Shown here: positions 414-3,039 of the stretch, one piece after another
Layout of the letters: every line of letters starts with the position of its first letter
How positions within the stretch are numbered: the stretch's first letter is position 1
Virus record (IMG/VR): IMGVR_UViG_2609459833_000014
Coordinates: 1-4,087 of that record
Source of the DNA: a virus
Lineage: Duplodnaviria > Heunggongvirae > Uroviricota > Caudoviricetes
Direction: 5' to 3' (one strand)
Length of the DNA: 4,087 nucleotides
Notes under the pieces: generated by a model
What the model saw: only the letters and a program-made list of their open reading frames with translations
What the model was told of the DNA's origin: nothing
Databases searched by the model: none
Program-made: the position numbers and the translations under genes

Positions 414-2387
414 ATGGCATTTAAACACTATGACGTGGTCAGGGCATCATCGCCGTCAGACCTCGCAGGAAAACTGACGCAAAAACTGAAGGAAGGCTGG
501 CAACCCTATGGTAGTCCGATTATCTCAAACGCGGGTTATGGTGCTGAATTTATCCAGGCTATAGTCGCTGAAGGGGATATGACCTCTCCGGTAGTTTCAC
601 CGGGGGGAGATGGTACCCGGACTGTTGTTGTTGAACCAGAATATTACTTTGTCATTGCGCTGGCCGGACAGTCAAACGGCATGGCGTATGGTGAAGGCCT
701 GCCGCTGCCGGAGACATATGACCGTCCGGACCCGCGTATTAAACAGCTGGCGCGTCGCAGTACGGTGACACCGGGTGGTGCGGCCTGTGCATATAACGAC
801 ATCATTCCGGCGGACCACTGCCTGCATGATGTGCAGGATTTGAGCCGTTTTTCTCATCCGAAAGCCAGCGCAGAGCAGTATGGGTGTGTCGGACAGGGAT
901 TGCATATTGCCAAAAAGCTGTTGCCCTTTATGCCGGAAAATGCGGGTATTTTGTTAGTGCCGTGCTGTCGTGGTGGCTCTGCGTTTACAGCCGGTGCTGA
1001 CGGAACGTTCAGTGAAAGTTCAGGAGCGTCGGATAAATCTGAACGATGGGGCGTTGATAAGCCGTTGTATAAAGACCTGCTGACACGCACTCAGGCCGCG
1101 CTGAAGGCAAACCCCAAAAACATACTGCTTTGTGTTGTCTGGATGCAGGGCGAGTTTGATTTAAAACAGGGAGCGTACGCCAGTCAGCCCGCCATGTTTG
1201 ATGCCATGGTGGAAAAATACCGTTCTGACCTGGCGGGAGTATCCGGTCAGTGCGCTGGTGCTTCTCCTTCTCTGGTGCCCTGGATTTGTGGTGACACGAC
1301 GTACTACTGGAAGGAGACGTATTCAGCGCAATACGATGCCGTCTATGGCGCATACAAAACCAAAGCCGGTAAAAATATCTTCTTTGTGCCGTTTATGATG
1401 GATGACAATGGTCAGAAAGTCGGGACCAATGAACCGTCAGAAGACCCGGATATTCCGGCTATCGGGTATTATGGTTCCGGTGGACGAACGGATGCGAAGA
1501 GCTGGACAACATCCGATCGTAAAACCCACTTTGGTTCATGGGCGCGTCGCGGAATTATTTCCGACCGTCTGGCAACAGCCATTCTTCTGCATGTGGGCAG
1601 AGTGGCAGATTTTGTTTCCGGGAAAGTGACAAAAGCCGCGGTTTCTTCAGGCGGAGGCGTATCGCAACCAGCACAGGAGAGTGGCGATACTCAGCCTGAA
1701 TCCGTTGTCCCGACAAAGATACAGTCAGTGCTGGCTTATGATGCGAATGCGGAAAATGCCGATCTGGCTTCGCAGGGCTGGACGCTGACAGATGTCAAAA
1801 ACACGCTGGTCAGTGACAGTGGTTCAGGTAAAAAAGCCCTTCGTCTTGAAAAACCAGAAAATGGTCTTGCACAGAAAAAGACCTGGAAAGTATCGCACGC
1901 AATTGATGCCGGTAAGGGGAAGGAGCTGTTCGATAACGGCGGTGAAATCACGCTGCGCTTTAAAATCCCCGATGATGTATCTCTCAATGCTTCTGCAAAT
2001 CAATATTCTGCGGGTATTTACTGGCGCGGTAGTGGATGGCCGGGAGCGGAATCAGAGGAGGGTTATATTGCGGCCTTCTATCTGCAGACTGATAAAACAA
2101 ACATCAATGTGATGTATCATGCAAACACCACATCACAGCGGCTTGGTAGTTATGGTCCGTTCGATCACGACTGGCACACGCTGACTTTCCGCTTCCCGGG
2201 TGGTGGCTCGCTGAACGTCACGCCGGTGCTTGATAATGCAGCAGGAAAACCGTTTACGCTGACCAGATGGACGAATGCAGCCTTTGAGGCCAACGCGCTG
2301 GCAATTACGGATATTACCGGAAATGCGGCAACTTACCCTGTGCTGATTGAAAGTCTTACTGTTGGTGTGAATGCCGTAGCAGCATAA
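414..2387 (+). CDS. nanS-p: Prophage-encoded sialate O-acetylesterase of the NanS-p type (9-O-acetyl-N-acetylneuraminic acid esterase): DUF1737-like N-terminus, SASA/SGNH-hydrolase core, C-terminal beta-rich putative carbohydrate-binding domain
   Basis: 657-aa ORF with good SD. Residues ~75-400 resemble chromosomal NanS/YjhS as I recall it (YYFVIALAGQSNGMAYGEGLPLP...PRIKQLAR...PCCRGGSAFTAG...WMQGEFD...GDTTYYWKE...GYYGS...HFGSWARRGIISDRLA). Block I GQSN has the candidate nucleophile Ser87 (codon 672..674 = tca); block III-like WMQGEFD is at aa 243-249; candidate Asp368/His372 lie in SDRKTHF. A Gly/Ser/Pro-rich linker (aa ~411-433) precedes a ~225-aa C-terminal domain. The position between upstream region and lysis genes matches the Stx-phage L0105/NanS-p locus. 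Confidence 0.88.
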   Translation: MAFKHYDVVRASSPSDLAGKLTQKLKEGWQPYGSPIISNAGYGAEFIQAIVAEGDMTSPVVSPGGDGTRTVVVEPEYYFVIALAGQSNGMAYGEGLPLPETYDRPDPRIKQLARRSTVTPGGAACAYNDIIPADHCLHDVQDLSRFSHPKASAEQYGCVGQGLHIAKKLLPFMPENAGILLVPCCRGGSAFTAGADGTFSESSGASDKSERWGVDKPLYKDLLTRTQAALKANPKNILLCVVWMQGEFDLKQGAYASQPAMFDAMVEKYRSDLAGVSGQCAGASPSLVPWICGDTTYYWKETYSAQYDAVYGAYKTKAGKNIFFVPFMMDDNGQKVGTNEPSEDPDIPAIGYYGSGGRTDAKSWTTSDRKTHFGSWARRGIISDRLATAILLHVGRVADFVSGKVTKAAVSSGGGVSQPAQESGDTQPESVVPTKIQSVLAYDANAENADLASQGWTLTDVKNTLVSDSGSGKKALRLEKPENGLAQKKTWKVSHAIDAGKGKELFDNGGEITLRFKIPDDVSLNASANQYSAGIYWRGSGWPGAESEEGYIAAFYLQTDKTNINVMYHANTTSQRLGSYGPFDHDWHTLTFRFPGGGSLNVTPVLDNAAGKPFTLTRWTNAAFEANALAITDITGNAATYPVLIESLTVGVNAVAA

Positions 2388-2393
2388 CAGACG

Positions 2394-2430
2394 AAAAAAA
2401 ACCGCCAGCAACAGGAATGGAGACTGGCGG
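2394..2430. other. Hairpin just downstream of the esterase stop: A8 run then 7-bp inverted repeat ccgccag / ctggcgg with 15-nt loop; terminator-like only when read on the minus strand
   Basis: Seen directly: aaaaaaaa (2394..2401), ccgccag (2402..2408), ctggcgg (2424..2430). No T-run follows on the plus strand; a U-run would follow the stem in a minus-strand transcript. Confidence 0.35.
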
Positions 2431-2528
2431 AGGTAATCCCAATGGAGAATCTAACGAAAGGATGCTTTCGACATCAATCATTTCTAAATGAAAACAGTTC
2501 TCATTGTCAACAGTAACGGTAATAAACC

Positions 2529-2723
2529 ATGACATTCATCAACCAGTTAATGCTGTACTTCTGTACGGTGGTCTGTGTGTTGTATCTTCTTTCAGGTGGA
2601 TACAGGGCAGTACGCGACTTCTGGCGCAGACAGATTGACAAAAGGGCCGCTGAGAAAATCAGCGCCACTCAGTCAGCCGGAGCAAAAACAGAAGCCCCAC
2701 TCATTCCGGAACAACCTTCTTAA
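2529..2723 (+). CDS. Hypothetical small membrane protein (64 aa; one N-terminal TM helix, basic C-terminal tail)
   Basis: ORF MTFINQLMLYFCTVVCVLYLLSGG-YRAVRDFWRRQIDKRAAEK... with hydrophobic stretch aa ~6-23 followed by Arg/Lys-rich segment. Stop codon immediately upstream in frame. SD is weak. Same strand and spacing as the flanking late genes. No family recognised. Confidence 0.45.
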   Translation: MTFINQLMLYFCTVVCVLYLLSGGYRAVRDFWRRQIDKRAAEKISATQSAGAKTEAPLIPEQPS

Positions 2724-2748
2724 TAACCCCTTTCAACGAGAAAATCTC

Positions 2749-3039
2749 ATGACAGATATAAAACAACTGGTCACTACTGAGGCAGTGAAGGAAGTCATTC
2801 GCTCTGAAGAAGTCAGAAGCGTCCTGAAACAAAAACTCCGCCAGAATCTGGAAGAGCGTCTTGATGCAGAAGTGGATTCAATTCTGGATGAATTGCTTGG
2901 TGCACAGCCGGAACCATCCCCGGAACTGCTTCCGGAACCACAGGCGGAAGATGTCACCACGGAAAATGGTGATATTCAGCCGGAGTCACCGGTGACGGAT
3001 ATGACAGACACACAACCCGAACCGGGCACAATGCTGTAA
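2749..3039 (+). CDS. Hypothetical acidic protein (96 aa; N-terminal predicted helical region, Pro/Glu-rich low-complexity C-terminal tail)
   Basis: The track shows a 154-aa ORF from 2575. I place the start at ATG 2749 (MTDIKQLVTTEAVKEV...), which has GAG ~7 nt upstream and does not overlap the preceding ORF. Many Asp/Glu against few Lys/Arg; repeated PEP/QPE motifs. Followed directly by a strong intrinsic terminator. No family recognised. Confidence 0.5.
   Translation: MTDIKQLVTTEAVKEVIRSEEVRSVLKQKLRQNLEERLDAEVDSILDELLGAQPEPSPELLPEPQAEDVTTENGDIQPESPVTDMTDTQPEPGTML

Follow-up and report, generated by a model that had tools for sequence, protein, structure and literature searches.

The seven-residue string GD-x-QPES, common to two neighbouring prophage proteins (a NanS-p type sialate O-acetylesterase and a DUF826 protein), most probably (roughly 85%) reflects a chance, compositional resemblance of two unrelated, intrinsically disordered, low-complexity segments, and not a common module. 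The two genes lie ~1.3 kb apart in the window, i.e. the whole stretch of DNA analysed (4,087 nt). For both motif copies we report the position, the predicted disorder and hypervariability of the surrounding segment, the marginal statistics of the match and the absence of relatedness at the DNA level.

Location of the motif copies in the NanS-p and DUF826 genes

The predicted esterase (Table 1) is composed of an N-terminal DUF1737 domain (aa 3-53, 6.2e-17), a catalytic SASA domain (1.4e-09; 38.3 bits vs. a cut-off of 24.8) and a C-terminal jelly-roll domain, DUF6645 (aa 508-618, 5.8e-27), all identified with Pfam. Its assignment to NanS-p is based on the SASA domain related to Escherichia coli NanS (PDB 3pt5, matching aa 71-391 with E=3.3e-118) and on the flanking DUF1737 and DUF6645 domains; a NanS-p structure (PDB 6yp6) matches aa 437-653 (E=1.3e-43). 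The DUF1737-SASA-DUF6645 architecture is the same as that of the prophage esterases NanS-p/vb_24B_21 (phi24B gp84; PDB 6yp6), and the place of the gene, upstream of DUF1378, DUF826, holin S and lysozyme R, is that found for NanS-p systems in lambdoid late regions, whereas the allele itself differs, being 56-81% identical to other NanS-p clusters. The block I sequence GQSN is present (invariant columns G85, Q86, S87 and N88), and esterase activity on 9-O-acetyl sialic acids is predicted. The end of an IS1 element lies 18 nt upstream of the NanS-p start codon. An Rfam scan of the window gave no match.

Table 1. Features of the NanS-p and DUF826 genes discussed in the text (window coordinates)
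Feature	Position (nt)	Strand	Basis or location
NanS-p type sialate O-acetylesterase gene (657 aa)	414..2387	+	Pfam and PDB matches
NanS-p interdomain linker (aa 392-436)	1587..1721	+	gap between PDB matches 3pt5 and 6yp6
Motif copy 1, GDTQPES, GGCGATACTCAGCCTGAATCC	1683..1703	+	NanS-p aa 424-430
DUF826 gene (96 aa from ATG 2749)	2749..3039	+	Pfam PF05696
DUF826 disordered C-terminal tail (aa 50-96)	2896..3036	+	AlphaFold2 pLDDT, composition
Three tandem 12-nt units, CCGGAAnnnnnn (PEPS/PELL/PEPQ), in the DUF826 tail	2908..2949	+	repeat search, spacing 12 and 12
Motif copy 2, GDIQPES, GGTGATATTCAGCCGGAGTCA	2968..2988	+	DUF826 aa 74-80
Degenerate second tail copy, DTQPE, GACACACAACCCGAA	3007..3021	+	DUF826 aa 87-91

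Flexible interdomain linkers rich in Pro, Glu, Ser and Thr occur in modular carbohydrate-active enzymes. Like these, the NanS-p linker joins a catalytic domain to a jelly-roll, lectin-like one, it is of low complexity and predicted to be disordered, and its length and sequence differ from one close homologue to the next; unlike them, it has no evident repeat structure. In the AlphaFold2 model, pLDDT is below 50 at aa 396-434 (block means of 39, 23 and 24 for aa 401-430), and motif copy 1 sits in its lowest-confidence stretch (pLDDT 23-24).

The DUF826 protein (phrog_311) matches PF05696 (2.3e-24; 85.8 bits vs. a cut-off of 25) over aa 1-57 only. As in other members of this family of small proteins of lambdoid and Stx prophages, its gene is placed between DUF1378 and holin S. 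Neither Pfam nor PHROGs assigns it a function, and the label "head completion protein" found in PhiR12 phage records, which these databases do not support, was disregarded. Helices are predicted at aa 3-49 (pLDDT 77-96), while the tail has no secondary structure in the AlphaFold2 model, with pLDDT block means of 55, 38, 38, 43 and 47 for aa 51-96 and values below 50 from aa 59 onwards. The tail contains 19% Pro, 15% Glu and no aromatic residues. The initial annotation had described the matching sequence as acidic, which holds for this tail (net charge -11) but not for the Ser/Gly/Gln/Pro-rich NanS-p linker (net charge 0 over aa 392-436). Since it carries the tandem 12-nt units, the DUF826 tail is a repetitive, repeat-driven low-complexity segment.

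Motif copy 1 is part of ESGDTQPESVV (NanS-p aa 422-432, nt 1677-1709) and SGDTQPESVVP (aa 423-433, nt 1680-1712), and motif copy 2 of ENGDIQPESPV (DUF826 aa 72-82, nt 2962-2994) and NGDIQPESPVT (aa 73-83, nt 2965-2997). The weaker match further along the tail reads DTQPEP (nt 3007-3024) or, with one more residue, DTQPEPG (nt 3007-3027). All the sequence statements of the initial annotation, which had placed the motif in the NanS-p linker and in the tail of the acidic ORF, are correct.

Comparison of the two copies at the protein and DNA levels

In a single pairwise BLASTP comparison, the two motif copies gave 20.8 bits, 8/11 identities and E=0.017, and the similarity is confined to these 11 residues; the second alignment, with the DTQPE copy, had 6/11 identities and E=0.13. 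The ungapped BLOSUM62 score of the motif pair is 40, a value reached or exceeded with p=0.021-0.023 if one shuffles the acidic ORF or its tail alone. Shuffling the full set of six window proteins (15 protein pairs) gave some pair at 40 or above in 8.7% of 300 trials (window-level p ~0.09), so that the score is about what composition-matched shuffles give at this level. Only if the test is restricted to the two segments, picked post hoc, does p fall to ~0.002-0.003. The GD-x-QPES match is thus not clearly beyond chance, and similarity significantly above that of compositionally matched sequences, as expected of a linker module, was not found (E=0.017; window p ~0.09). A gapped Smith-Waterman comparison of the whole proteins was set aside: its top alignment (score 43, shuffle p ~0.02) pairs NanS-p aa 458-499 with DUF826 aa 1-40, a meaningless stretch that is not the motif.

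The DNA of the two stretches had been described as similar but not identical, and this is the case, with 16/21 identical positions in the motif core and 22/33 when all 11 aligned codons are counted. The same codon is used at only 2/8 identical residues, and the closest of the 8 DUF826 nucleotide alleles compared reaches 24/33, so no nucleotide similarity was found beyond that imposed by the common residues. The synonymous positions of the two copies are not conserved and differ to the extent expected of random codon choice. No repeat shared by the two sites came out of a DNA repeat search. A local alignment of linker DNA with tail DNA (score 26, codon-shuffle p=0.003) was dropped as independent evidence, being a post-hoc test of chosen segments that only mirrors the protein match.

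Distribution of the motif among homologues and other proteins

The homologue survey of NanS-p covered the best 120 of 1571 matches (cluster representatives). Among these, the linker is ~10 to 50 residues long with unrelated sequences, and GD.QPES (or GD-T-QPE) was found only in the window allele (P0074); a 79%-identical relative (P0075) lacks it and reads SPQSPQPENESE there. The allele is rare (~20/5426 complete E. coli genomes), and even within it the last motif residue is polymorphic, with GDTQPEA at 13 and GDTQPES at 9 of the fetched loci. The NanS-p interdomain tether is accordingly, on the basis of the model and of these homologues, a predicted disordered, hypervariable spacer.

In DUF826 homologues, the N-terminal helical half is nearly invariant and the tail varies in length and sequence (29 intact tails). 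The exact motif occurs in 7/29 tails and a looser G..QPE in 10 more; the site reads GDIQPES, GDIQPEP, GEVQPES, GKPQPES or GEPQPES, or is absent. The longest of the subfamilies (AQPEPSPELLPEPQAEDVTTENGDIQPES...) includes the window tail. Conservation of the motif across orthologues is partial for DUF826, where G-x-x-QPE-S-P-V is fairly conserved within one subfamily and other subfamilies lack the motif (GGEPTPDSDMMM tails), and nil for NanS-p among the best 120 of 1571 matches. Its conservation in the one subfamily implies that the DUF826 copy may be under some constraint.

Unrelated linkers match DUF826 tails equally well or better. When other linker variants were paired with DUF826 tails, 29/870 pairs scored at least 40 (maximum 47), and 9/30 variants, from several unrelated linker families, reached that score. 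Of 30 IMG/VR loci in which the tail is of the GDIQPE[SP] type and NanS-p can be read, 21 have linkers of other families (LLPFLSG.., TLSFLTG.., TAEFITG.. and VAVSTEK.., at least four). The motif was not found in further proteins: GD.QPE occurs in these two genes only in the complete 62-kb genome of PhiR12_3, a 99.6%-identical phage, and all 27 IMG/VR matches to E[SN]GD.QPES fall in DUF826 tails (22) or NanS-p linkers (5), with Ser searched as TCN only. Among the observations that count against chance, (i) the pairwise E of 0.017 is not large, (ii) p is ~0.002 for the two segments alone, (iii) the 9-residue pattern is rare, with no unrelated carrier in IMG/VR (Ser as TCN only), and (iv) no more than ~1.3 kb separates the genes.

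In one alternative, a short stretch would have passed from the DUF826 tail to the NanS-p linker, or in the opposite direction, through duplication, illegitimate recombination or gene conversion, and would have diverged since. Such common descent would agree with the 8/11 identities (E=0.017), with the adjacency of the genes and with the readiness of the NanS-p linker to accept foreign or novel sequence, as judged from its many unrelated types. Window-type linkers also always adjoin an AQPEPSPELL-family tail (10/10), which reads GDIQPES wherever intact (9 loci; in the tenth, the tail stops short of the motif), but physical linkage explains this pairing equally well. We regard common descent as very unlikely. 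Among the best 120 of 1571 NanS-p matches, the motif is limited to one rare allele and is absent from its 79%-identical relative, so any transfer would be recent, and despite this implied recency only 2/8 codons agree and no DUF826 allele exceeds 24/33. The similarity moreover ends at 11 residues, no DNA repeat was detected, and unrelated linkers score equal or higher against DUF826 tails.

Proposed origin of the resemblance and its meaning

The NanS-p copy lies in what is probably a flexible tether (aa 392-436) between the SASA esterase and DUF6645 jelly-roll domains, which would be free to change in length and sequence. The DUF826 copy lies in a predicted disordered, acidic tail, rich in Pro, Glu, Gln and Thr, that follows the conserved helical half; made of short PE/QPE repeats, this tail changes through small insertions and deletions. 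Both segments would act solely as spacer or tail, and the string would have no function of its own. Of the two readings offered by the initial annotation, convergent low-complexity sequence fits these data, whereas a common linker module, spread by shuffling or duplication, fails the checks proposed with it, because the score is about at shuffle level for the window, the motif is absent from the NanS-p homologues examined other than the window allele, synonymous sites are not conserved and no third protein in PhiR12_3 or IMG/VR carries the string.

A functional short linear motif, i.e. GD-x-QPE(S) recognised by the same partner in both disordered segments and kept, or made twice, by selection, seems highly improbable. 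The copies do occupy disordered regions, the usual place of linear motifs, and one DUF826 subfamily conserves G-x-x-QPE-S-P-V. According to the available text of a preprint on phi24B, its gp84, a NanS-p relative, is a capsid decoration protein that loses its C-terminal domain by cleavage in the linker region (bioRxiv 10.64898/2026.04.10.717836); candidate partners would be the activity severing this domain on virions, or a capsid or host factor. Against this, the motif is absent from all other NanS-p linker types among the best 120 of 1571 matches, including the phi24B/933W-like one, both proteins vary at its last residue (S/A in NanS-p, S/P in DUF826), the DUF826 subfamilies with GGEPTPDSDMMM tails lack it, and DUF826 goes unmentioned in that available text, its protein table aside (bioRxiv 10.64898/2026.04.10.717836).

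Chance resemblance, the reading preferred here, removes a tentative lead on domain shuffling and otherwise matters little. It is a most remote prospect that GD-x-QPE is a true linear motif with one partner for both proteins, for which the activity detaching the virion-bound, lectin-like NanS-p domain would be a candidate, with DUF826 as a co-regulated substrate or competitor in a capsid-decoration pathway. Were this so, linking the motif to how NanS-p is processed on the capsid would open a first route to the function of DUF826, which is widespread in prophages of the Stx and lambdoid types.

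Gene layout and relatives of the window

The window (4087 bases) covers the end of the late region in a lambdoid E. coli prophage that resembles Stx phages, and its NanS-p-type esterase, DUF826 and other genes belong to known families. The same gene order also occurs directly downstream of stxAB in phages such as TL-2011c. The related phages PhiR12_3 and PhiR5_2 share 99.6% (from nt 396) and 99.2% (from nt 388) identity with the window, respectively. The NanS-p allele is uncommon: about 20 of 5426 complete E. coli genomes match at least 80% of the window length at high identity, and other NanS-p clusters hold thousands of member sequences each. 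Since the phage matches and those in the 5426 genomes begin at nt 388 or 396, the IS1/nanS-p junction was not seen elsewhere. The IS1 terminus (nt 395) is separated from the NanS-p start codon by 18 nt and lies just 5' of the esterase's ribosome-binding site (GGGAGGA); the insertion may deprive the esterase gene of transcription from the late promoter.

A scan limited to loops of up to 8 nt located strong hairpins that resemble terminators and carry T runs (see table); the one at nt 3049-3077 would lie inside the late operon and is presumably read through under Q antitermination. An A run followed by an inverted repeat (CCGCCAG...CTGGCGG, 15-nt loop), just 3' of the NanS-p stop codon (nt 2393-2429), was found by reading the sequence, its loop being too long for that scan; on the minus strand it reads as a hairpin and a subsequent T8 run.

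The start of DUF826 is ambiguous: ATG 2749 is the start in the Pfam profile and in the shorter database entries, and many NCBI entries of 132-134 aa begin at TTG 2635, from where they overlap DUF1378 over 89 nt in a different frame (longer candidate ORF, 2575/2635-3039). DUF826 has no assigned function in Pfam or PHROGs (both "unknown"), and is named only in passing in PMC10462455. The GenBank label "head completion protein", given to DUF826 in PhiR12_3 (record L001, 4853-5143) and in PhiR12_4 (record L003, 2861-3151), has no functional support in Pfam or PHROGs and looks like an annotation artefact.

Features of the window and location of the motif copies
Feature	Position (nt)	Strand	Details
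IS1 end	1-395		insA on minus strand at 65-340
NanS-p-type esterase	414-2387	+	657 aa; Pfam DUF1737, SASA, DUF6645
NanS-p interdomain linker	1587-1721		aa 392-436
GDTQPES	1683-1703		aa 424-430 of NanS-p
DUF1378 membrane peptide	2529-2723		
DUF826 protein	2749-3039	+	96 aa
DUF826 acidic tail	2896-3036		aa 50-96
GDIQPES	2968-2988		aa 74-80 of DUF826
DTQPE	3007-3021		
Terminator-like hairpin	3049-3077	+	DUF826/holin S gap
P21-type holin S	3116-3331		
Lysozyme R	3336-3869		
Terminator-like hairpin	3960-3992	+	3' of lysozyme R

The GD-x-QPES match at the protein and DNA level

The motif strings and positions that the initial annotation had reported for the NanS-p linker (...VSQPAQESGDTQPESVVPTK...) and the DUF826 tail (...DVTTENGDIQPESPVTDMTDTQPEPGTML) are correct. 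ESGDTQPESVV and ENGDIQPESPV share 8 of 11 residues (20.8 bits, E=0.017 as one pairwise BLASTP comparison), with an ungapped BLOSUM62 score of 40. Scores of at least 40 were obtained in 2.1-2.3% of 1000 trials in which the acidic ORF, or its tail alone in place, was shuffled, and when all six window proteins were shuffled, at least one of the 15 protein pairs reached this value in 8.7% of 300 trials. The probability would be about 0.002 had linker and tail been chosen beforehand, but the choice was actually made after the match was seen. In the whole-protein gapped alignment of NanS-p and DUF826, the top alignment (score 43) was an unrelated stretch and not the motif. The string match is real and is about what chance predicts for a window with two low-complexity segments; similarity beyond compositionally matched shuffles was not borne out at the scale of the window.

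At the nucleotide level the copies are, as described, similar but not identical (22/33 aligned bases). Of the eight residues that agree, Asp and Gln alone are encoded identically in both copies; the other six (Glu, Gly, Pro, Glu, Ser, Val) have different third codon bases. A repeat search of the window with 7-nt seeds found no repeat linking the two sites, and the closest of the eight DUF826 nucleotide alleles in 108 fetched loci matches the NanS-p copy at 24/33 bases. The similarity in DNA thus goes no further than the shared amino acids require. Common descent, through a short duplication or conversion between linker and tail, is disfavoured: among the 120 NanS-p representatives aligned, the motif is limited to one rare allele and would therefore have to be recent, but at synonymous sites it has diverged fully from all DUF826 alleles seen. 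No evidence points to a shared origin of the two copies.

Motif distribution and composition controls

Among the 120 best NanS-p cluster representatives (56-100% identity), the linker runs from the last esterase helix to the C-terminal domain's first strand and is ~10 to ~50 residues long; its sequences are mutually unalignable (e.g., SPQSPQPENESE, PTGPSGEGTEREPEAP, SDSATTESPQPSTSAPQPGAGTQPSPEVP). Within this set GD.QPES is confined to the cluster of the window itself (P0074), and its last residue is polymorphic even within the window allele (GDTQPEA in 13 loci, GDTQPES in 9). DUF826 residues 1-51 are nearly invariant and the tail is variable: 7 of 29 distinct intact tails carry GD.QPES, 10 the looser G..QPE (GEVQPES, GKPQPES, GEPQPES), 8 QPE or QPD alone and 4 none of these (GGEPTPDSDMMM). 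A functional linear motif shared by both proteins is very improbable, given that all other NanS-p linker types among the 120 representatives and entire DUF826 subfamilies lack it, and that its final residue is polymorphic in both proteins.

The tail contains three tandem 12-nt units (nt 2908-2949) coding PEPS/PELL/PEPQ. Homologue tails differ in length in a way that resembles loss of sequence between short repeats (a QPE..QPE collapse in P0033, PE..E in P0012, QPDG..QPDG in P0041 relative to P0055), which suggests slippage or unequal recombination as the way in which the tail evolves.

In 80 IMG/VR loci found via DUF826, a GDIQPE[SP] tail accompanied a readable NanS-p in 30, of which 9 had the window-type linker and 21 linkers of four other families; the motif in DUF826 thus does not depend on the one in NanS-p. 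Every window-type linker in this sample adjoins this DUF826 tail family, which is expected at a distance of 1.3 kb. In the complete PhiR12_3 genome (61,979 bp), translated in six frames, GD.QPE does not occur outside the two genes. An IMG/VR search with a degenerate DNA pattern for E[SN]GD.QPES (Ser as TCN) produced 27 matches on 24 contigs, comprising 22 DUF826 tails and 5 NanS-p linkers, and neither search showed any sign of a mobile linker module.

When each distinct NanS-p linker, the window linker left out, was scored against each distinct DUF826 tail, 29 of 870 unrelated pairs scored at least 40. Nine of the 30 linker variants, drawn from several unrelated families, account for these pairs, and the top score was 47 (AVSTEKPATEPEAPPSPPSGAETT... 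against a motif-less DUF826 tail). Matches of this size thus arise repeatedly from composition alone. Of the two origins put forward initially, a common linker module created by shuffling or duplication is disfavoured by the chance-level score, the diverged codons, the lack of a third carrier in either search and the restriction to one NanS-p allele among the 120 representatives; merely convergent low-complexity sequence agrees with unrelated pairs scoring as high or higher.

Structural setting of the two segments

The NanS-p motif (aa 422-432) falls in a 45-residue gap between the regions covered by the solved structures of NanS (PDB 3pt5, aa 71-391) and the NanS-p C-terminal domain (PDB 6yp6, aa 437-653). 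In an AlphaFold2 model (23 homologues), pLDDT is below 50 over aa 396-434, with block means of 23-24 over aa 411-430 and a single marginal helix (aa 398-402). The DUF826 model (19 homologues) has helices over aa 3-49 (pLDDT 77-96); its tail is of low confidence and has no predicted secondary structure (block means 55, 38, 38, 43 and 47 over aa 51-96; from aa 59 on, pLDDT is below 50). The tail is composed of 19% Pro and 15% Glu, with a net charge of -11 and no aromatic residues. Most likely the NanS-p segment serves to tether the jelly-roll, lectin-like domain flexibly to the catalytic domain, and that of DUF826 is the acidic, disordered tail of a small helical protein. Location, disorder, variability and the absence of relatedness in DNA are observed for the two segments; that neither string has a function of its own is an inference.

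According to a 2026 preprint (bioRxiv 10.64898/2026.04.10.717836), the NanS-p homologue gp84 of phi24B is a capsid decoration protein anchored via DUF1737 and is cut between the catalytic and C-terminal domains on storage; the region equivalent to NanS-p aa 53-72 is proposed there as a second processing site. No SSP occurs in the window NanS-p linker. The DUF1737-to-SASA linker (aa 53-72) is also predicted to be disordered (pLDDT <50). By analogy with phi24B, this match to the proposed site, together with capsid binding by DUF1737, suggests that the esterase of the window prophage may be a virion decoration protein too.
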